Positions 4,021 to 32,068 of a DNA stretch of 32,068 nt are shown here, one piece after another; position 1 is the first letter of the stretch, and every line of letters begins with the position of its first letter. This DNA is from Thermodesulfovibrionales bacterium. Lineage in GTDB: Bacteria > Nitrospirota > Thermodesulfovibrionia > Thermodesulfovibrionales > Dissulfurispiraceae. The position numbers were made by a program, and so were the translations under genes. The notes under the pieces were generated by a model. The model was not told the DNA's origin. It saw nothing but the letters and a program-made list of their open reading frames with translations, and made no database searches. The DNA lies in the NCBI GenBank assembly GCA_021129835.1, contig JAJOKM010000043.1, forward strand, positions 1 to 32,068, written 5' to 3'.

Positions 4021-4048
4021 TTGCCTTTCGGCATCTGTTTGTTATACT
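4021..4048 (+). promoter_or_regulatory. Possible sigma70-type promoter for the tRNA gene
   Basis: TTGCCT (4021-4026), a 16-nt spacer, then TATACT (4043-4048), lying 29 nt upstream of the mature tRNA 5' end. This is a pattern match only. Confidence 0.35.
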
Positions 4049-4150: not shown

Positions 4151-4189
4151 TCAACTGAAAAGCGCGAGTAACTACTCCGGTTATCAAGC

Positions 4190-4296
4190 TCAAAATTCAC
4201 GATTCACAATCTTTATCAGGGTATCAGGTTCAAGGTTCACTGTTCGATAGTTAACAACCTTTCAGAACCCTTGAACCGTAAACCTGAGACCTGAAA
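4190..4296. repeat. Heptad-periodic palindromic intergenic element (copy a)
   Basis: It reads AATTCAC GATTCAC ... AGGTTCA AGGTTCA CTGTTCG ... TTGAACC GTAAACC TGAGACC. Its core at 4225-4288 is homologous to 31934-32001. It lies between the convergent tRNA and slt genes. Confidence 0.85.
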
Positions 4297-4304
4297 TAGA
4301 TACC

Positions 4305-6458
4305 TTAGAAATGTCCCTTATATCTCTTGATGGCGGCTACATCAATGTCTCCACTTGCCCGCATATATTCAAAATGATTAGTCAGCACCCTTATAACATA
4401 ATTTCGCGTTTCTCGGAATGGTATGTTTTCTATGAATTCATCAATCGCGGTGTAGTTTCCCCTTTCCACCCATATCTTTACATTGCTCGCTCCTGCATTA
4501 TATGCTGCAAGAGCTATGGGGATATAGTTAAAAATGTCTAAACGATTTCTTAGATAATAGGTGCCCAGAAGGATATTGGTCCTTACATCATAGAGGTCGT
4601 CAATACTTGCGATTTCTTTGCCGATATATCCAGAAACTCTTTGTGCGGTTTTAGGCATCAACTGCATTAATCCTCTTGCTCCGGCGACTGACCTTGCATT
4701 AGGGTCAAATTTCGATTCCTGTCTAATTACTGCAAGAATTAAGAGTGGGTCTATCTCTTTTTTCTTTGAGGCCTCTTCAATCTCTGGCAGAAATGCCATA
4801 GGAAAAAGTATTTCGTGCGGCCTTTCACCACGCGGAACTCGCGAAATAAGTCTGATGGCCATTCTATAATTTCCAAGCTTTCTCAGACGAGAGCTTAGAT
4901 ATATAAGTTCACTGCGAGATGGATCTTTCCCCGATAGGTGTATTAATTCTGAAATTGCTTCTCTCTTGAATCCAAGCGCTGATAGAATGTCAACCCTCTC
5001 CACTGATGGTAAAGAGGAGGGCAGAAGTGCAACTGGTTGATATGCTATTTCTTCGATGCCAGGTATCTTCTGATTATTCCTCAGCATCGACATGAATACA
5101 TAAAAATCATGGTCTGGACTGCCTGTTAACCGATATGTCATTGGCAATTCTTGTCTGCCTAATATCTCAGCGCACCTGTTCTTCCAATAAAGGTACCTGG
5201 TGCTACCATACCTCTTATAGAGTTTCGAGAATATCTCATAGGCGTCTTTGTGGTTTCTCGATAAAAAGTATGTCCAGCCCTTTGCCCATAAGGCGCCCCT
5301 TTTTTTAGACGGAAACTCTGATATCACCATGTTGAAGATTTTTATTGCGCCTTCAATGTCTCCCCCTGCCCTTTTTTTCCTCAGCCCATGAGCAATTAAT
5401 ACAGGTACAACGCCTTCATCGCCTGCCTTTATCAATGCCGGCAATTCTGCCTCGAATATCTCCATATCACCTGCCCTAATGGCCAATCTAAATAAAGATC
5501 GTGCCCACCAAGAGTAGTTATTGAGTTCCCGATACAGCTCCGCAGCATCTCTGTAATATCTCTGCCTGAATAAAGAGAGGGCAAGTCCTCCTATTATTTC
5601 ATTCCTGAACTCCCCGCCATCATCTCTTTTCAGGGCCTCCTCGAAGGCTTTTTTTGATTCTCTGAACATCCTTGCCCTATTATGATTGTTGCCCCTCTTA
5701 ATAAGGTCTTCGATCGCTATGTCAGATGGCAATAATTTATTTAGTGCATCTTTTGACAGCGGTGATGTGGATCTAAATATCTCTCTAAAGACATCTGTTG
5801 CCTTTTTTGTCTCATCGTTTCTCTTAAGAAAAAGGGCATACGCATATTTTATCTCAAATTCACTTGGATAATCCCTGACAAAAGCTTCGAATAATTCAAC
5901 TGCATCCATACTGTTTTTCTCTATAAGGAGCTCTATTTCGAGCCTTTTTGCATCTCTGACTAGGGGGAAATCTCCATATTTATCCCTGATACTTCTCAGG
6001 TCAGATATGGCTCTGTTTATTTCTCCTTTATTTTTAAATGCCATTGCCCTCCACAAAAGGACGTAGTCGCCCAAAACAGGCAGTCTATTATAAGCTACCG
6101 TCAGGTAAGCTATCGCACCTTTATAGTCGCCCGCAGCAAGGCTGCTTTTTCCTGCTAAAAGGTAGTATGCCGCCTCATCTGATGGAATATTTCTGGTTTT
6201 ATCAGAAGCAGACGAGATTGCGGGTGAGATTAAAAACAATACCAAAGCGGTCAAGAGTAAGGAATTTTTGATGAAATGTAATAGTTCAGCTCCCCCTAAC
6301 CCCCTCCCGCCAGGGGTGGGGGAATGTTTATTGATAATATTCCATACTACATCCCCAAAAGGGCTGGTGACCTTTTGGGGACCCCTTAATTCCCTCCCTC
6401 TTGACGGGGGAGGGTTAGGGTGGGGGCGAACTATTGCCATAAAATGCATATTCAGCAT
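4305..6458 (-). CDS. slt: Soluble lytic murein transglycosylase (Slt70-like); start codon uncertain
   Basis: The C-terminal SLT domain carries the catalytic Glu motif AVIRQESKFDPNARSVAGARGLMQLMP and AAYNAG. The N-domain is long and alpha-superhelical. A signal-like segment KNSLLLTALVLFLISPAISSASD follows about 60 codons that are encoded by repeat B2. Confidence 0.88.
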   Translation of the reverse strand: MLNMHFMAIVRPHPNPPPSRGRELRGPQKVTSPFGDVVWNIINKHSPTPGGRGLGGAELLHFIKNSLLLTALVLFLISPAISSASDKTRNIPSDEAAYYLLAGKSSLAAGDYKGAIAYLTVAYNRLPVLGDYVLLWRAMAFKNKGEINRAISDLRSIRDKYGDFPLVRDAKRLEIELLIEKNSMDAVELFEAFVRDYPSEFEIKYAYALFLKRNDETKKATDVFREIFRSTSPLSKDALNKLLPSDIAIEDLIKRGNNHNRARMFRESKKAFEEALKRDDGGEFRNEIIGGLALSLFRQRYYRDAAELYRELNNYSWWARSLFRLAIRAGDMEIFEAELPALIKAGDEGVVPVLIAHGLRKKRAGGDIEGAIKIFNMVISEFPSKKRGALWAKGWTYFLSRNHKDAYEIFSKLYKRYGSTRYLYWKNRCAEILGRQELPMTYRLTGSPDHDFYVFMSMLRNNQKIPGIEEIAYQPVALLPSSLPSVERVDILSALGFKREAISELIHLSGKDPSRSELIYLSSRLRKLGNYRMAIRLISRVPRGERPHEILFPMAFLPEIEEASKKKEIDPLLILAVIRQESKFDPNARSVAGARGLMQLMPKTAQRVSGYIGKEIASIDDLYDVRTNILLGTYYLRNRLDIFNYIPIALAAYNAGASNVKIWVERGNYTAIDEFIENIPFRETRNYVIRVLTNHFEYMRASGDIDVAAIKRYKGHF
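6278..6437. repeat. MITE-like element B2 (GTAATAGTTCAGC ... GGCGAACTATTGC)
   Basis: The termini are inverted and match at 11 of 13 positions. A perfect central 10-bp hairpin pairs CCCCAAAAGG (6353-6362) with CCTTTTGGGG (6371-6380). A G4 motif GGGGG-A-GGG-TTA-GGG-T-GGGGG lies at 6406-6426. The element sits inside the annotated 5' end of slt. Confidence 0.8.
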
Positions 6459-6514: not shown

Positions 6515-7723
6515 TTAAAATTGCCTCAGATACTCCATGAAGGAATCAAAATTCCTCTTTGTCTCGACCATGCTGTCTCCGCCAAATTTTTCTAAAAAGG
6601 CATCAGCAATCACGATGGCCGTCATCGCCTCTCCAATAATCGAGGCCGAGGGAACTGCGCATGTATCTGAGCGTTCATATGCCGCCTCAAAAGGTCTTTT
6701 TGTAATTATATCCACAGAACTCAGTGGTCTTTTTAAGGTGGGTATTGGTTTCATTGATGCCCTCATGACTACAGGCATGCCATTTGTCATTCCTCCCTCG
6801 ATTCCTCCAGCATTATTTGTTTTTCTGTAAAATCCCATACCCGTCCCCTGCCCTCCGATTCTTGAGTCCTCAAAAAATACCTCATCCATAACCTCTGAAC
6901 CAAATCTTTCTGCCATCTTTAAGCCTGCTCCGACCTCAACAGCTTTTATTGCCTGAATAGAAAAGAGTGCCTGCGAAAGGCGAGCATCGAGTCTCTTGTC
7001 CCATTGTATATGGCTGCCGAGACCGGGGGGAACTCCTGCCGCAACTACTTCAAATACACCTCCAATAGTATCTCCATTGTCTGTTGCCCTGTCAATCAAT
7101 TTCATCATTTTCTGGCCTGCTTCTTCGATCGGACACCTTACAGGGGATGCGTCGACATTTTCGAGAAATTCATCTGAAATATAATCTGTAGTCCATGACA
7201 TTATATTTTCAGCCCTGATACTACCTATCTGGATAACATAGCTGCCGAGATTTATTCCAAACTCTGAAATAAATCTCTTTGCTACTGCACCGATGGCAAC
7301 CCGCATCGCTGTCTCTCTTGCACTGGCACGTTCAAGGATATTTCGTATATCTGTGTGTGAATATTTTAGGGCGCCTGCAAGGTCAGCATGGCCAGGCCTT
7401 GGACGGGTTACTGCAGGGATGGAGTCTTCATGTCTGCCTTCTGAAGACATACCCTCCTGCCAGTTTTTCCAATCCCTGTTTTCGATGAAGATAGATATCG
7501 GTGAGCCTGTGGTCTTCCCCCATCTTACGCCGGATGTTACCTCGGCGCAGTCATGCTCAATCTTCATTCTATCACCACGCCCATATCCCTTCTGTCTCCT
7601 TTTGAGCTCCCTGTCGATATCGTCTGGTGGTAGAGAAAGACCTGATGGAATTCCCTCGAGTATTCCTATTAACCCTTTCCCGTGGGATTCGCCTGAAGTA
7701 AGAAATCTGAGCCTACCCATCAT
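6515..7723 (-). CDS. aroC: Chorismate synthase
   Basis: The N-terminus MGRLRFLTSGESHGKGLIGILEGIP and the internal RPGHADLAG and GGIEGGMTNG motifs are present. The ORF is 402 aa. Confidence 0.95.
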   Translation of the reverse strand: MMGRLRFLTSGESHGKGLIGILEGIPSGLSLPPDDIDRELKRRQKGYGRGDRMKIEHDCAEVTSGVRWGKTTGSPISIFIENRDWKNWQEGMSSEGRHEDSIPAVTRPRPGHADLAGALKYSHTDIRNILERASARETAMRVAIGAVAKRFISEFGINLGSYVIQIGSIRAENIMSWTTDYISDEFLENVDASPVRCPIEEAGQKMMKLIDRATDNGDTIGGVFEVVAAGVPPGLGSHIQWDKRLDARLSQALFSIQAIKAVEVGAGLKMAERFGSEVMDEVFFEDSRIGGQGTGMGFYRKTNNAGGIEGGMTNGMPVVMRASMKPIPTLKRPLSSVDIITKRPFEAAYERSDTCAVPSASIIGEAMTAIVIADAFLEKFGGDSMVETKRNFDSFMEYLRQF

Positions 7724-7755: not shown

Positions 7756-7863
7756 AGGTTCACGGTTAACAGTTTACAGTCCGCGGTTTACGGTTAACAG
7801 TTTACGTTAACTGATAACTGGCAACTGATAACTATCCTTTATAACCGTGAACTGTGAACCTGG
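7756..7863. repeat. Heptad-periodic palindromic intergenic element (copy c)
   Basis: It reads GGTTCAC GGTTAAC AGTTTAC AGTCCGC GGTTTAC GGTTAAC AGTTTAC GTTAAC TGATAAC TGGCAAC TGATAAC ... CGTGAAC TGTGAAC. Positions 7798-7846 are identical to 23650-23698. Confidence 0.9.
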
Positions 7864-7945: not shown

Positions 7946-9121
7946 CTATGGTCTTGTCATAACGGGTGTCTTCCTCTCTGCTTGTGCGGAGTGCGCAGAT
8001 AGGTCTTTTTTCTGTTCGTTCATTACCTGTGTCTGAAACATTATCCTGAGGTCGTTAGGATTGGAGCTCGCATCAAGGGCGTCTTCTTTTGAGAGGACAT
8101 TATCTTCGACTAATTTAAACAGGTGCTGGTTAATAGTCTGCATCTTGTAGAGCTCCGTTGACGATGCAATTGCCTTATCGATAGCGTCGAGCTTTCCATC
8201 GATAATCAATCTCTTTATTGTTGGAGTATTCATCATTATCTCCATTACAGCCACTCTGCCTAATCCATCTGATCGTTTCACTAATCTTTGCGTTATAACT
8301 GCTATTAATGACATTGCTATTTTTACCCTTATGTAGTTATGCATATCAGGCGGAAAGGAATCGATTATCCTGCTTATCGATTGCTTCGCATAATTTGTAT
8401 GGAGTGTGCTCAAGGCCAGATGTCCGGTATCGGCTGCTGATAGAACTGCGTGTATTGTCTCTGGGTCTCTCATTTCACCAACAAGTATTATGTCGGGGTC
8501 TTGCCTCATTGCCCTCTTAGTAGCTTCCGAAAATGAGCGCGTATCAATGCCTACTTCTCGCTGATTTATAGTGCACTTTTGATCTTCAATGATGTACTCC
8601 ACCGGGTCTTCGATGGTAACTATGTGTTTCTGAACATTTCGATTCAGATAGTCTATTATCGCTGCAAGGGTCGTTGTTTTACCGCTCCCTGTCGGGCCTG
8701 TAATGAGAATTAGCCCCTGTCTGCTGAGTGCTATCTCTTTTAAAACCTCCGGCAACCCGAGGTCATCCATACCCCTGGCTTTTGAAGGAATAATTCTCAT
8801 AACTGCGCCAATAGTGCCTAACTGGTAAAACATATTAACTCTGAATCTTGTCATGTTTTCTGCTACATATGAAAAGTCCAGTTCCAGCTCTTCCTCCAGT
8901 CTTTTTCTCTGAATGCCTGTAAGCATTGAGGATAAGATCTCCTCCATCTCCTTTTTTCTTACAAGAGGATATCCTGTGAGGTGCAGATCACCCTCTATCC
9001 TCATCAAGGGAGATCTCCCAACCTTTAGATGGAGATCTGACCCACCTCTTTCGACTAATGCCCTTAAATATCCTTCTATCTTCATATCTTTTTCAATAGC
9101 AGTTATCGGTTTACGGTTCAC
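7946..9121 (-). CDS. PilT-family type IV pilus retraction ATPase paralog (PilU-like)
   Basis: It has Walker A GPTGSGKTTT, Walker B/Asp box DPDIILVGEMRD and His box GHLALSTLHT. It lacks the PilT-specific AIxNLIREGK motif, having TIKRLIIDGK instead. The GTG start at 9121 lies inside a repeat, and ATG at 9085 (MKIEGYLRAL..) is an equally plausible start. Confidence 0.85.
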   Translation of the reverse strand: MNRKPITAIEKDMKIEGYLRALVERGGSDLHLKVGRSPLMRIEGDLHLTGYPLVRKKEMEEILSSMLTGIQRKRLEEELELDFSYVAENMTRFRVNMFYQLGTIGAVMRIIPSKARGMDDLGLPEVLKEIALSRQGLILITGPTGSGKTTTLAAIIDYLNRNVQKHIVTIEDPVEYIIEDQKCTINQREVGIDTRSFSEATKRAMRQDPDIILVGEMRDPETIHAVLSAADTGHLALSTLHTNYAKQSISRIIDSFPPDMHNYIRVKIAMSLIAVITQRLVKRSDGLGRVAVMEIMMNTPTIKRLIIDGKLDAIDKAIASSTELYKMQTINQHLFKLVEDNVLSKEDALDASSNPNDLRIMFQTQVMNEQKKDLSAHSAQAERKTPVMTRP

Positions 9122-9166
9122 GGTTCACGGTTAAAGAAACTGTAAACTGTAAACTGTAAACTGTCA
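9107..9166. repeat. Heptad-periodic hairpin (copy e) between pilT and the pilU-like gene
   Basis: The sequence is CGGTTTA CGGTTCA CGGTTCA CGGTT-AAAGA-AACTGTA AACTGTA AACTGTA AACTGTCA. Hand pairing on the plus strand gives 26 positions: 20 Watson-Crick, 4 G:T and 2 C/A mismatches. Confidence 0.85.
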
Positions 9167-10225
9167 TTTTGCTGATAATTTGAGTTTTAATGTATCAGGA
9201 TTATTGGTCTTGCCAAAGGCATCCTCAACTGTTATTAATTCACTCCTAACAAGCTCTGACAAGGATGTCTCGAAGGTGCACATCCCATATCTTGCACCAG
9301 TTTCTATAGAGCTATATATTTGATGGGTCTTCCCTTCCCTAATAAGGTTTGAAATGGCATTTGTGATTAGCATTACTTCTCTTGCTGCAACTCTGCCATT
9401 GCCGTCCATACGAGGCAACAGTTGCTGGCATATAACCGCCTGAAGTGTGGAAGCCAGTTGAACCCTTATCTGTCGTTGCTGGTGGGAGGGAAAGACATCG
9501 ATTATTCTGTCTATTGTCTGTGGCGCATTCTGGGTATGGAGTGTTGCAAATACCAGGTGTCCGGTCTCTGCTGCCGTGATAGCCAAAGAGATGGTCTCCA
9601 GATCCCTCATCTCACCTACCAGTATTACATCGGGGTCCTGTCTGAGTGCGTGTTTCAGGGCAATACTAAAAGAGACGGTATCTGCGCCAACTTCACGCTG
9701 TCTTATTATGCATTTTTTATGACTATAAACAAATTCTATCGGGTCTTCAATGGTTAATATGTGGTCATGCCGTTCTGAATTTATAATATTTAGCAGAGAT
9801 GCCAGAGTGGTAGTCTTTCCAGACCCCGTAGGCCCTGTGACCAGTACGAGCCCCCTTGGAAGTTTAGTCAGTGAGATTATTGCAGCAGATAGTCTTAAAT
9901 CCTTTGGTGATGGAATTTGACTTGGGATCAATCTCATTGCCGACTCAATGCTGTTCCTCTGGGAAAATACATTGATACGAAATCTTCCAATGCCTGGGAC
10001 GCCGTACGAAAAATCTATCTCGCGGTTTTCTTCAAACCTCGCAATCTGATCCTGATACATTATACTGTAGATCAACGCCTTTGCATCTTCTACTGATAGT
10101 TCAGGAAAATCCGGCAGTGGCAGTATCTGCCCGTTAACCCTGATCATCGGGGGTTTTTTGACAACAATATGTATGTCAGATGCCTTTGCATCTACAGCAG
10201 CATGAAGGATGTTAATTATATCCAT
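9164..10225 (-). CDS. pilT: Type IV pilus twitching-motility ATPase PilT
   Basis: It has Walker A GPTGSGKTTT, DPDVILVGEMRD, GHLVFATLHT and the PilT signature AISNLIREGKTHQI. I place the start at ATG 10225 (MDIINILHAAVDAKASDIHI), preceded by GGGGG. The track's upstream 27 codons are encoded by a repeat. Confidence 0.92.
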   Translation of the reverse strand: MDIINILHAAVDAKASDIHIVVKKPPMIRVNGQILPLPDFPELSVEDAKALIYSIMYQDQIARFEENREIDFSYGVPGIGRFRINVFSQRNSIESAMRLIPSQIPSPKDLRLSAAIISLTKLPRGLVLVTGPTGSGKTTTLASLLNIINSERHDHILTIEDPIEFVYSHKKCIIRQREVGADTVSFSIALKHALRQDPDVILVGEMRDLETISLAITAAETGHLVFATLHTQNAPQTIDRIIDVFPSHQQRQIRVQLASTLQAVICQQLLPRMDGNGRVAAREVMLITNAISNLIREGKTHQIYSSIETGARYGMCTFETSLSELVRSELITVEDAFGKTNNPDTLKLKLSAK

Positions 10226-10243
10226 ATCGCCCCCTTGGTATGA

Positions 10244-10331
10244 GATGTGAGGACGAGAAGGTGTGAAGATGAGAAGGTGTGAAGGTGTGAATTCACAACT
10301 TCTCATCTTCTCGTCTTCTCATCTTCACAAC
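10244..10331. repeat. Imperfect palindrome of short tandem units centred on GTGAATTCAC, in the divergent pilT/secA spacer
   Basis: GAAGATGAGAAG (10265-10276) is the exact reverse complement of 10299-10310. GACGAGAA (10252-10259) pairs with TTCTCGTC (10308-10315). The central 10-bp palindrome lies at 10287-10296. Confidence 0.85.
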
Positions 10332-10403
10332 TGTACTCATATTACCCATGTGCCCTTTGATTACCTGCTTGCATAATGCACCAAAAGTGATTTATTATAA
10401 AGT

Positions 10404-22210: not shown

Positions 22211-23563
22211 TCATTGATTATCGGGAAGATGTGCCACTTTATCAGCTCTCAAAGGTAAATATACTAATTTGCTGCTGGTAAGCCCCTCAAGGGCATTAAT
22301 ATAAGTCAACTGCCTCTCTTTGACGCGATTGAAGTCTGACATGTAATCTGGCCTTACTGATTCGGCTGCCGGAAAATCTAGGGTCAAAAAGTTTACCGGC
22401 CTTCCCCATTGGCGGACCCCAAAACTCAGATGAGGCCCAGTAGAAAGACCTGTAGAACCAACATATCCTATTATCTGTCCCTGCTCTACCCTGACGCCCT
22501 TCCGTATACCCTTCCCATAGCGAGATAGATGCCCATAAGTGGTAGTAAATTCACGGCTATGGCGTATTTCGACAAAGTGTCCATAGTCTCCTCTCCAACC
22601 AGCATGAGTGACTACTCCATCGCCTACTGCCATTATAGGTGTGCCTGTAGGGGCAGCAAAATCGGTGGCGGGGTGTGGACGATAAATCCCCAAAACAGGA
22701 TGAAACCTCCGAGGAGAAAAGTGGGAGCTAATGCGGTAATAATTTAATGGGGAGCGCAAAAACTTTTTCTTTAAAGACTCACCCTGCGGAGTGTAATAAC
22801 CCTTACTTCCCGCTGGGCATTCAAAGAAGATAGCCGTGTAAGTCCTTTCGCCTCTCTGATATTGGGCAGATAATATTCGCCCTTGCCTAATTGGTATATC
22901 ATCTTTATAGTATCGCTCCCAGACTATCGTGAAGATATCTCCAGGGCGAGTCTCACTAAAAAAGTCTATCTGCCATGCAAAGATATTAGCAAATCGCACA
23001 ACCATTTCAGGAGCTAAATTCTCTCTCTTCATAGCTTTATATAAGGAACTCTCGATTTCACCTCTTATCCCAACCATATGTTTATCTAAGGAGACCTCTT
23101 GCTTTGAGGCTACTAATTCTCCGTCTTCTGATTTCTCGACCAGATAAATCTGCGTGAGAGAAACCTGGTATTTGAAACTCTTGAAATCGCCGCATCCATA
23201 AAAGGTGATTTCATACTTATCTCCTGGGCGACCCCTTTTAAGATTAAACACAGACCGCATCGATTCTTCTAAGGCAAGAATTTTGCTCGACGGTATGCCG
23301 TTTCTTCTTAGAGAAACATAGAGAGGTTCGCCCGCCCTTATCTCCCCTTTTATTACCCTTGTGGGAAGAGAGAGTTTTGGTAGTTGTTGCTCCACCTCAT
23401 CACTCGATAGCTTTTCTGCCAATACTTCCTTTACAGATGCCGTCTCTGCCGGCAGATGGGCAGGAGGTACCGTTTCTGATCTGAAGGCAAAAAGTCCTAC
23501 AATAATTAGTAAACTCATGACACAAGCTAGAAGAAACCACTTCTGATATTTTTTACTTTTCAT
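22211..23563 (-). CDS. M23 family peptidoglycan endopeptidase-like protein with a degenerate HxH motif
   Basis: It has an N-terminal TM or signal segment, HxxxD (HPATD), YGHLS, and GSTGLSTGPHLSFGV where GPHLHFE is expected. A strong RBS GGAGGAG is present. Confidence 0.85.
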   Translation of the reverse strand: MKSKKYQKWFLLACVMSLLIIVGLFAFRSETVPPAHLPAETASVKEVLAEKLSSDEVEQQLPKLSLPTRVIKGEIRAGEPLYVSLRRNGIPSSKILALEESMRSVFNLKRGRPGDKYEITFYGCGDFKSFKYQVSLTQIYLVEKSEDGELVASKQEVSLDKHMVGIRGEIESSLYKAMKRENLAPEMVVRFANIFAWQIDFFSETRPGDIFTIVWERYYKDDIPIRQGRILSAQYQRGERTYTAIFFECPAGSKGYYTPQGESLKKKFLRSPLNYYRISSHFSPRRFHPVLGIYRPHPATDFAAPTGTPIMAVGDGVVTHAGWRGDYGHFVEIRHSREFTTTYGHLSRYGKGIRKGVRVEQGQIIGYVGSTGLSTGPHLSFGVRQWGRPVNFLTLDFPAAESVRPDYMSDFNRVKERQLTYINALEGLTSSKLVYLPLRADKVAHLPDNQ

Positions 23564-23588: not shown

Positions 23589-23737
23589 GTAACTACTCAG
23601 GTTCAAGGTTCAAGGTTCACGACAAAAAAGGTTCCACGTTCACAGTTCACAGTTTACGTTAACTGATAACTGGCAACTGATAACTATCCTTTATAACCTC
23701 GAACCTCGAACCTCGAACCTTGAACCTGAGTAGTTAC
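23589..23737. repeat. Heptad-periodic palindromic element (copy d) with perfect 20-bp terminal inverted repeats
   Basis: GTAACTACTCAGGTTCAAGG (23589-23608) is the exact reverse complement of 23718-23737. The arms are GTTCAAG x2, GTTCACA x2 and CTCGAAC x3. The core at 23650-23698 is identical to 7798-7846. Confidence 0.92.
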
Positions 23738-23743
23738 CTCTAT

Positions 23744-25282
23744 TCAATTAGCAGCCCACTTGATTATATCATCAACCATTGCCTTTATGGTGGCTTCTTG
23801 TGGCATTATGGTGACTTTAAGCCCGGCAACTTCTATTGCCTTTGTCGTAACAGGGCCTATGGAGGCTATAGCTGTGCCTCTCAAGAAATCTATTGCCTCT
23901 TCTCCTACTATATCGATAAAGTTATTGAACGTTGCAGCGCTTGTAAATGTTGCTATCGAAATCCTGCCCTCCTTTAAAAATTGCTTGAGCCTTTTGCCGT
24001 GCTTTTCGAGTTTGATAGCACGATATGTGGCCGGTGTATCTATCTTTCCTCCTAATTCCCTTACTTTTTGGGGAAATATTTCCCTCGCAATATCAGCCCT
24101 CGGAAGTAATATCTTTAATCCCTCAAGATTTTTATCTCCTCCTGCCTCCTGAACACTATGCCCTTTAACAAACGCCATTATTAAGCCCTCTGCGTTGAAC
24201 TCTTTTGGAACAAGATCTATTTTAATACCATAATTTCTGATTGCCTCAGCAGTCTTTGTGCCTATAGCGCATATCTTAATCCCCTTTAAGTCTCTAATAT
24301 CCTTGTCTCGATCAACAAACCTCTTTATGAAATACCTAAACCCGTTTGCACTTGTAAACATGAGCCAGTTGTAATCTTCTATCCTGTCTATTGTGCTGTC
24401 TATTTCAGAATAACTCGCTGGCGGAACTATTTTTGTTGTCTGAACCTCAAATATCTCGGCACCTAAATCCTCAAGTGGTCCATAATCCGGCGTATATTTC
24501 CTTGTTATTAAAATCCTGCTGCCGAAAAGAGGTCTATTTTCATACCACTTTATGGTATCTCTTAGCCTGACAACATCTCCGACTATCATTACCGCAGGTG
24601 ACCTCATCTTGCTCTCTTTTACAACTCCCGCAATATCTCTCAGGCTGCTCACAATAGTCTTCTGGTTAGGCCTTGTTCCCCACCTTACTACTGCCACTGG
24701 TGTATCTGGAGATTTTCCATGACTTAGAAGTCTTGAGGTAATGCCGCCCATATTTTTGATGCCCATCAAAAAGACAAGGGTATCGACACTGCTTGATAGC
24801 TTTGGCCAGTCTATGGAGCTTTCAGGCTTTGTTGCATCTTCATTGCCCGTGATTACTGCAAAAGATGAAGAATACCTTCTGTGGGTTAGTGGAATACCTG
24901 CATATGCAGGCACTGCTATCGAGGAACTAACACCAGGAACTATCTCAAACTCTATGCCCTCTTGTGCAAGGATCTCTGCCTCTTCACCGCCACGGCCAAA
25001 TACAAATGGATCACCGCCTTTTAACCTGCAGATAATTTTACCCTTTTTTGCCCTGTCCACGAGTGCCTGATTGATCTCACTCTGGGTCATTGCGTGGTGT
25101 CCTCCGCGTTTTCCGGCATAGATAAACTCTGCATCATGGTCGATATAATTCAGTATCTGGGCATTTAGATGGAAGTCGTATACCACAACCTCAGTCTTTT
25201 GAAGACATCGCATGCCTTTAACTGTCAGCAGCCCTATATCGCCAGGCCCTGCGCCTATGAAATAAATCTTGCCTTTTCTCAT
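23744..25282 (-). CDS. cobA-hemD: Bifunctional uroporphyrinogen-III C-methyltransferase / uroporphyrinogen-III synthase
   Basis: The N-terminal SUMT motifs are KIYFIGAGPGDIGLLTVKG and GGDPFVFGRGGEE. The C-terminal ~250 aa is HemD-like. The gene overlaps hemC by 4 nt. Confidence 0.9.
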   Translation of the reverse strand: MRKGKIYFIGAGPGDIGLLTVKGMRCLQKTEVVVYDFHLNAQILNYIDHDAEFIYAGKRGGHHAMTQSEINQALVDRAKKGKIICRLKGGDPFVFGRGGEEAEILAQEGIEFEIVPGVSSSIAVPAYAGIPLTHRRYSSSFAVITGNEDATKPESSIDWPKLSSSVDTLVFLMGIKNMGGITSRLLSHGKSPDTPVAVVRWGTRPNQKTIVSSLRDIAGVVKESKMRSPAVMIVGDVVRLRDTIKWYENRPLFGSRILITRKYTPDYGPLEDLGAEIFEVQTTKIVPPASYSEIDSTIDRIEDYNWLMFTSANGFRYFIKRFVDRDKDIRDLKGIKICAIGTKTAEAIRNYGIKIDLVPKEFNAEGLIMAFVKGHSVQEAGGDKNLEGLKILLPRADIAREIFPQKVRELGGKIDTPATYRAIKLEKHGKRLKQFLKEGRISIATFTSAATFNNFIDIVGEEAIDFLRGTAIASIGPVTTKAIEVAGLKVTIMPQEATIKAMVDDIIKWAAN

Positions 25283-31933: not shown

Positions 31934-32001
31934 AAGGTTCCAGGTTCAAAGTTCACGGTTCACGGTTAACAACCCTTCAGAACTTGAACCGTGAACCTGA
32001 G
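31934..32001. repeat. Heptad-periodic palindromic element (copy i), homolog of 4225-4288
   Basis: The sequence AAGGTTCCAGGTTCAAAGTTCACGGTTCACGGTTAACAACCCTTCAGAACTTGAACCGTGAACCTGAG aligns with copy a along its whole length. It lies immediately upstream of the hem operon. Confidence 0.85.
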
Positions 32002-32015
32002 CAGTTATCTTTATT

Positions 32016-32068
32016 GGTTCTTCTCCAAATTTAGTAGAGATTAGGTAGTGTAGGGCTTTATGCCCGTA
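32016..32068 (+). repeat. Third copy of the edge module seen at 59-115 and 198-250, cut by the window end
   Basis: GGTTCTTCTCCAAATTTAGTAGAGATTAGGTAGTGTAGGGCTTTATGCCCGTA matches the reverse complement of 198-250 at 51 of 53 positions. Confidence 0.9.

Follow-up and report, generated by a model that had tools for sequence, protein, structure and literature searches.

Two short intergenic elements lying 16 kb apart share an identical 49-nt core, while the heptanucleotide repeats that flank the core on either side differ between them. This arrangement raises the question of what kind of element is involved and of why its centre should stay constant as its arms change. An earlier note on the same DNA offered two answers, namely recent transposition followed by slippage in the arms, or selection on the core as a protein- or RNA-binding site. 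To our knowledge, there is no consensus on how the tandem heptamer repeats of bacterial spacers arise or spread, although they were first described decades ago.

The window analysed here, 32,068 nucleotides in length, is contig C4 of a 1.35-Mb metagenome-assembled genome (G000; 181 contigs, 43% G+C, estimated completeness 90%). Its source and Ca. Magnetocorallium paracelense (genome G139) are members of one GTDB order, in the phylum Nitrospirota. In our reading, to which we assign a probability of roughly 0.8, the window elements are non-coding MITE copies carrying the ends of IS66-family insertion sequences (ISs), with heptad arms that change by slippage and a core that changes more slowly.

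The window copies and their genomic family

The 49-mer, CAGTTTACGTTAACTGATAACTGGCAACTGATAACTATCCTTTATAACC, is present without mismatch at both 7798-7846 and 23650-23698, and the identity of the two copies reaches one more base leftwards, to 50 nt. No further match with up to three mismatches was found in the window, and none of 100 shuffles gave any. The base-for-base identity reported in the earlier note was therefore reproduced at its exact positions, the heptads named there for the arms of both copies are all present, and so is the internal direct repeat CTGATAACT at 7811-7819 and 7825-7833. The core itself has a period of seven, reading TGATAAC TGGCAAC TGATAAC, with a unit number that differs among copies; in both window copies, adjacent TGATAAC-type units each differ by one base. 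The same stretch can also be read as TAACTGA TAACTGG CAACTGA. The features of the window, including terminal inverted repeats (TIRs), are as follows.

4168..4303, + strand: superfamily member with a different core; left TIR GTAACTACTCCGGT, degenerate right end
7756..7863, + strand: copy 1, core-A subfamily; trimmed, without either TIR (none within 3 mismatches)
7757..7805, + strand: copy 1 left arm; GGTTCAC GGTTAAC AGTTTAC AGTCCGC GGTTTAC GGTTAAC AGTTTAC
7798..7846, + strand: copy 1 core; last left-arm heptad, GTTAAC, 2.7-unit interrupted TGATAAC array, TATCCTTTATAACC
7843..7861, + strand: copy 1 right arm; AACCGTGAACTGTGAACCT, complementary to the outer left arm
9107..9164, + strand: heptad hairpin without TIRs; (CGGTTCA)n, then (AAACTGT)4
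23589..23737, + strand: copy 2, core-A subfamily; complete 149-bp element
23589..23602, + strand: copy 2 left TIR, GTAACTACTCAGGT; identical to the ends of autonomous IS66-family elements
23603..23657, + strand: copy 2 left arm; GGTTCAA/GGTTCAC heptads, the shared module CACGACAAAAAAGGTTCCACG, then AGTTCAC, AGTTTAC
23650..23698, + strand: copy 2 core; identical to 7798-7846
23695..23723, + strand: copy 2 right arm; (CTCGAAC)x3, then CTTGAAC
23724..23737, - strand: copy 2 right TIR; ACCTGAGTAGTTAC on the + strand
31934..32008, + strand: superfamily member; right TIR ACCTGAGCAGTTAT, without a left TIR

From the outer left, a full copy consists of a 14-nt TIR, GTAACTACTCAGGT(T), and a sub-terminal array of GGTTCAA/GGTTCAC/RGTTTAC heptads, followed by an internal module, complementary GTGAACC/TTGAACC heptads and the inverted repeat again. 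As a single strand, such a copy is predicted to fold into a long hairpin. Copy 2 nearly fills the spacer between a methylase/HEM4 gene (23744-25282, - strand) and an M23 peptidase gene (22211-23563, - strand), and is antisense to both. Its predicted folding energy as DNA is -36 to -42 kcal/mol (z = -9 to -11). Because the TGATAAC units of the core pair imperfectly with the inner RGTTTAC units in the predicted folds, with the apex at ACGTTAAC, the modelled "core" is the 3' half of the inner stem together with an unpaired tail, and not a loop.

Copy 1 lies between the stop of a T2SSE-family ATPase gene (7946-9121, - strand) and the start of a chorismate synthase gene (6515-7723, - strand), and is likewise antisense to both neighbours. 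Its right arm agrees with that of C1:36286-type elements as far as CCTGGAA and diverges beyond. The copy has two clean breaks, the left one immediately ahead of ATTAGGTTCAC and the right one directly after CCTGGAA, and its core is still perfect. Because both TIRs are cleanly gone beside a 100% identical core, neutral, uniform decay fails to explain this copy. Its origin may possibly lie in two deletions, or in recombination between heptad arrays that copied the interior; with both terminal repeats lost, it would no longer be mobilisable.

A genome-wide search by blastn-short and an anchored motif found about 24 copies of the core-A family on 22 contigs, several of them at contig ends. The pair described in the earlier note thus stands for the window, but it is no mere pair. 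The exact 49-mer is present in only three of the core-A copies, and an exact 41-mer (from GTTAAC to TATAACC) in five. The genome contains 186 TIR sites with at most two mismatches, which form 46 left-right pairs less than 450 bp apart, mostly 90-165 bp, with GTAACTACTCAGGT and ACCTGAGTAGTTAC bounding copy 2 and 45 other elements. These elements are small, non-coding, multi-copy and AT-leaning, and nearly all are intergenic (43 of 46). The spacers holding them are co-directional, divergent or convergent about as such spacer types occur. Besides core A, at least four other internal modules are enclosed by these ends and arms in this genome.

Seven of the 24 core-A copies end near CTATCCTTTA and lack the right half, all stopping within a few bases (C9:17679, C45:7230, C92:2243, C109:44, C109:4290, C166:1606 and C51:4802). 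They retain the left TIR or, failing that, the left arm, and the break, which falls in the unpaired tail of the predicted hairpin, is followed by unrelated sequence, often with a gene boundary 5-12 nt off. Transposition with an alternative end was considered for these seven copies; on inspection, the eight bases past the break do not repeat the left flank, and the idea was rejected.

Other repeats are also abundant in this assembly, which contains 413 period-7 arrays of at least three units (10.8 kb in total); their unit types are numerous and not limited to GGTTCAC. Of the 362 contig ends, 74 lie within 150 nt of a TIR or a period-7 array, and that roughly a fifth of the contig ends fall in elements of this kind explains a practical assembly problem. 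Another repeat family, GGTTCTTCTCCAAATTTAGTAG...GGGCTTTATGCCCGTA (55 nt, 96% complementary), occupies positions 198-252 and 32014-32068 of the window, that is, both contig ends, and is also nested in a TIR-bounded element on C1 (C1:9812-10233). Positions 10243-10332 form a hairpin of 8-nt, not 7-nt, units (AGATGTGA / GAAGGTGT versus CTTCTCAT) that overlaps the 5' end of the open reading frame called at 9164-10306 and the spacer before secA.

Terminal repeats, target duplications and a probable IS66-family partner

In 12 of the 46 TIR pairs, at least seven of the eight flanking bases are identical, compared with 0.04 expected when the flanks of different elements are paired. The signal is found at offset 0, exactly at the TIR boundary, and shifted offsets give counts of 0 to 3. 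A clean duplication is kept by only about a quarter of the elements. Seven core-A copies keep both TIRs, and three of these (C96, C5 and C55) match at six or more of the eight flanking bases; at copy 2, an 8-bp target duplication is absent (AATCCTCT versus CTCTATTC).

Elements of the IS66 family are known for ends beginning with GTAA. Because GTAA ends combined with 8-bp repeats suggested this family, IS66 was tested as the partner. A gene for an IS66 DDE transposase adjoins the TIR in genomes G139, G091 and G132, and in Ca. Magnetocorallium paracelense (G139:C100) the DDE reading frame stops 14 nt from it. A search of species genomes with the G139 transposase revealed full-length relatives in many phyla. 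In one Nitrospirales chromosome, a 2,413-bp IS with at least 14 copies is bounded on either side by the unaltered 14-nt TIR and flanked by 8-bp duplications (ACGCTTTT, TACAATTG, GGGTCGAG); its 510-aa product (L034:3491-5020) comprises DDE_Tnp_IS66 (E = 1.8e-46), DUF6444 and zf-IS66. The ends GTAACTRYTCAGGT and 8-bp duplications recur in about 30 distinct full-length relatives from different phyla, and the IS66-family ISs with 14-mer ends range roughly from 1.6 to 3.2 kb, typically about 2.4 kb. These autonomous ISs carry no heptads beside their TIRs; thus, the arms belong to the small elements and are not derived from the IS. For ISDge4 of Deinococcus geothermalis, a member of the ISBst12 group with TIRs GTGACTACTCAGCA/GTAACTGCTCAGCA and the 8-bp direct repeat CCTCGATG, transposition has been observed (PMC12898284).

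The 2,413-bp IS (L034:2615-5027, Nitrospirales MAG OY820905.2; copies in L034-L045, L056 and L066) contains, upstream of the transposase, a 295-aa ORF matching PF14236 (DruA, formerly DUF4338; E = 2.6e-32), and has no tnpA/tnpB-like genes. A 42%-identical IS66-family transposase relative was found in a Thiomargarita sp. MAG (L102, DYNP01000071.1), from a lineage with described TAACTGA repeats.

Judging from the matching ends and the target duplications, the elements were probably moved by an ISBst12-group IS66 transposase, which would act in trans by recognising the 14-nt ends and inserting the element with an 8-bp duplication. A Pfam search found no IS66 DDE domain (PF03050) in G000, and tblastn with both IS proteins likewise detected no transposase there; given an assembly that is 90% complete and in 181 contigs, its absence from the genome is uncertain. 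All TIR pairs 0.6-4 kb apart, examined for an autonomous copy, enclose housekeeping genes between two separate small elements. Across the order, the TIR is patchy: a pattern count gave 74 sites in G000, 44 in G139, 44 in G259 and few in others, with zero sites in every other genus of the same family and 0-1 matches per genome for a reversed control pattern. Because the assembly holds no such transposase, the copies in this genome are probably stranded relics of a lineage-specific burst, and any recent mobility here is hypothetical. Nor was an empty site or a presence/absence polymorphism found, as all eight strain assemblies for copy 1 and all four for copy 2 carry the element; for this reason, mobility in this lineage is something we can only infer.

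A different origin would make the elements host-built heptamer hairpins of the STRR or TAACTGA kind, spread by recombination or gene conversion, with an incidental likeness to IS66 ends. The 413 period-7 arrays of many unit types fit such an origin, as do the TIR-less copies with intact interiors (copy 1, C51 and C82), the TIR-less relatives that still carry short GGTTCAA/GGTTCGA hairpins, and modules such as CACGACAAAAAAGGTTCCACG that are common to subfamilies in either orientation. A merely incidental likeness is nonetheless unlikely when the TIR matches IS66-family IS ends in many phyla at 14 of 14 positions, when 8-bp duplications directly abut the TIRs (in 12 of 46 elements of this genome and in 12 of 42 among the metagenome matches listed), and when the reversed control gives next to no matches. 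Recombination between copies may well act in addition to transposition, and could explain copy 1. Two of the TIR-less GGTTCAA/GGTTCGA hairpins were located at L004 (G033:C1:781996) and L006 (G036:C81:11524), one of them directly after a stop codon. Because such relatives carry heptad hairpins without TIRs, the heptad motif appears to be older or more widespread than the TIR-bounded family.

Relative constancy of the core and change in the arms

Independent assemblies of near-identical strains (99-99.7% identity), obtained by exact-protein look-ups, were used to compare arms and core. The look-up with the M23 peptidase returned nothing, and that with the methylase returned one contig, which ends 36 nt past the gene, before a usable stretch of the element. 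For copy 1, eight assemblies that are 99.0-99.7% identical over 6.2 kb show no length variation; among 76 variable columns in the 6.2 kb overall, one single-nucleotide polymorphism (SNP) falls in the left arm (7791) and one in the core (7826, T/C, in four of the eight strains). For copy 2, three of the four assemblies span the whole spacer, which measures 173, 180 or 187 nt, and in the fourth a contig end interrupts it. The length changes comprise a gain of one AGTTCAC and a gain of two units in the left arm, as well as the loss of one CTTGAAC in the right arm, the two-unit gain being the allele of the assembly whose contig ends inside the spacer. The 49-mer is unchanged in all four other assemblies, and one strain has one SNP in the right TIR. 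Furthermore, one AAACTGT unit (9137-9143) of the hairpin at 9107-9164 is missing in two strains.

On the time scale of strains, whole-heptad changes are thus found in the arms and none in the core, while point substitutions affect both alike. We attribute the former to replication slippage, by which arms with runs of identical heptads would gain or lose whole 7-nt units after insertion. The first of the two answers in the earlier note, transposition followed by slippage in the arms, is supported by the TIRs, the 8-bp duplications, the matching autonomous IS66-family element and the heptad alleles of copy 2 around a fixed 49-mer. One strain assembly, L112, has 24 nt inserted at 6417, within the 5' portion of an SLT-domain gene, and shows a gap of 18 nt (4021-4038) on the margin of the alignment.

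Among paralogues, the core is more variable than the two window copies suggest. The modal array of 2.7 TGATAAC units is found in 10 of about 21 copies, and the other copies have 1.7 (one), 3.7 (seven), 4.7 (two), 5.7 (one) or 10.7 (one) units, so that the shortest array measures 12 nt and the longest 75 nt; the left arms measure 27-91 nt and the right arms 9-31 nt. The earlier note had held that its contrast would be an artefact of two samples if the core diverged as fast as the arms. Because the array runs from 1.7 to 10.7 units genome-wide, the "invariant core" is indeed partly a two-sample effect, although the core is still slower than the arms between strains. Its non-repetitive anchors (TTTACGTTAACTGATAAC, AACTGATAACTATCCTTTA) show conservation above 90% at almost all positions in 19-22 paralogues.

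The modal core has no two identical adjacent units, and the arrays that changed between strains have two to three identical units in a row; the core-A copies with adjacent identical TGATAAC units are the expanded ones. Because it lacks identical neighbours, the 2.7-unit core would slip only rarely, and adjacent identical units, where they occur, could lead to expansion, up to 10.7 units. These few alleles suggest that the stability of the core is an effect of repeat purity on slippage.

The alignment of both window copies with the sister elements C1:36286 and C68:6392 reveals a common scaffold, including the module CACGACAAAAAAGGTTCCACG, and the right arm of copy 1 is identical to that of the sister subfamily. 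Core A differs from core B2 by an additional 21 nt, three heptads in all, situated after GTTAAC and ahead of the TTTATAACC tail. Because this 21-nt block is the one large difference in the alignment, the 49-mer can be read as the older apical loop of the sister subfamily (GTTAAC...TTTATAACC) with a heptad array that presumably grew inside it. Growth of the array from the neighbouring GTTAAC is a conjecture, one that fits the core variants reading TGTTAAC in C5, C9 and C166.

The second answer in the earlier note, that the core is a functional small RNA or a protein- or RNA-binding site kept by selection while the arms drift freely, draws on the conserved anchors, on the 49-mer that is fixed in five strain alleles of copy 2, three of which differ in their arms, and on copy 1, in which a perfect core is retained with both TIRs gone. 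A young burst, however, would equally give high identity among paralogues. With Rfam covariance models, no match at E <= 1 was found for either copy on either strand, and at gathering score the sole match in the window was a tRNA. The orientation of the copies relative to flanking genes is mixed, with about 13 same-sense and about 10 antisense. Among 317 species genomes of the order, the core pattern is confined to this genome; it was not found in same-family relatives, and it is absent from the 42 complete arm-sharing elements among the metagenome matches listed. Within the species, the T/C SNP at 7826 in four of eight strains, the range of the array from 12 to 75 nt and the 7 of 24 copies broken at the 3' edge of the core all argue against constraint, and we consider selection on the core improbable. 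A more specific function, that of a translational operator, has been proposed for TAACTGA-type arrays in marine Beggiatoaceae, where they are placed upstream of start codons (MacGregor, 2015; PMC4679880). The core does contain TAACTGA TAACTGG CAACTGA, and on C92 a truncated copy in forward orientation is followed after about 11 nt by the Shine-Dalgarno sequence and start codon (ATG) of an NAD-kinase-like gene. Yet the forward placement a few nucleotides upstream of start codons seen in Beggiatoaceae is not the pattern found here: both window copies and about 10 of 23 copies genome-wide are antisense, the distance from the core to the next gene start varies from about 10 to more than 300 nt, and the array lies inside a hairpin that is predicted to sequester it. 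An operator role therefore seems very improbable.

When other organisms are included, the contrast between core and arms is reversed. A scan of JGI metagenomes for the TIR followed by GGTTCAMGGTTC gave at least 120 contigs. Among the matches listed, 42 are complete elements, 12 of which have target duplications at seven or more of eight bases, and in all 42 the core is unrelated to the five modules of G000. Elements in genomes G139, G259, G262 and G232 have the TIR and the 8-bp duplication in common with those of the window and are built of other units (GGCTGTA, GGCTGAA). Thus, across organisms, the ends and arms are common and the cores differ, whereas within the species one core has been inherited in common and slippage has made the arms diverge. 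A tentative and rather doubtful generalisation is that the TIR and the GGTTCAx heptad arms form a reusable frame that propagates, with arms needed for mobilisation, cores that are swapped and arrays that are born in the loop. The arms might then help mobilisation, for instance if they paired the two 14-nt ends or bound a host factor, and new heptad arrays, including those of the TAACTGA type, might arise inside the loop and then be carried around. If this were true, heptamer-repeat hairpins would owe part of their patchy spread, for which no mechanism was evident to MacGregor (2015; PMC4679880), to carriage by IS66-type MITEs. A scan of the JGI metagenomes for TAACTGA arrays beside this TIR gave 0 matches; hence, there is no evidence that the elements explain the TAACTGA repeats of other phyla.

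Comparison with known systems

As a family, the elements show the marks of MITEs, being small, non-coding and multi-copy, with TIRs, target duplications and TIRs in common with an autonomous IS. Their ends begin with GTAA and the TIR is close to GTRACTRCTCAG, as in the IS66/ISBst12 group, with 8-bp direct repeats; a cognate transposase was not found in the same genome assembly. Compared with ISBst12-group ISs, the 14-nt ends are identical to those of the ISs in L033-L088 and agree with ISDge4 at 12 of 14 positions, and the duplications are likewise of 8 bp (PMC12898284). Unlike those ISs, the window elements measure 90-165 bp and encode nothing, and only the 14-nt ends are common to both.

Nezha of Anabaena/Nostoc, Correia, RUP and ERIC elements are similarly short, non-coding, multi-copy and intergenic (PMC3184786, PMC10969869), with TIRs that match an IS in other species, direct repeats on their flanks and a predicted hairpin of high stability (PMC3184786). 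In contrast to these, the elements described here have heptad arms that vary in length between strains and one TIR-arm frame that holds many unrelated cores; and while filled and empty sites served as evidence for Nezha, none were found for the window elements. REP/BIME sequences mobilised by RAYT were rejected as a class, as they require GC-rich palindromes of 20-40 bp with a GTAG/CGTC tag, and the elements here are 90-165 bp long with 14-nt TIRs and 8-bp duplications. A MITE of Porphyromonas gingivalis containing a minisatellite is reported to have an internal tandem repeat with variable copy number (PMC4596501). The present elements differ from it in the 7-nt unit and in arrays that form complementary hairpin arms as well as lying in the core. 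In a non-exhaustive literature search, we found no IS66-derived or heptad-armed MITEs. The elements are a subfamily of IS66/ISBst12-type MITEs, a known kind, with a heptad-armed frame and changeable cores that we did not find described.

Tandem direct repeats of the STRR type are represented by the 1.7-10.7 TGATAAC-type units per copy. With the TAACTGA repeats, the elements have in common the same heptamer and its one-mismatch variants, an intergenic position, a mixture of heptamers and 7-nt steps between strains (PMC4679880). They differ in that the heptamers here lie inside a TIR-bounded hairpin, in either orientation to genes, and in a phylum, Nitrospirota, that is unlisted there (PMC4679880). 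A set of heptamer repeats thereby gains a concrete anatomy, inside elements with IS66-family transposon ends and target duplications. None of this demonstrates a benefit or role in the host. Two processes become separable, insertion by a transposase that would act in trans and length change in 7-nt steps between strains, and the comparison offers a testable model in which repeat purity, and not selection, would determine which parts of such an element are frozen and which are fluid.
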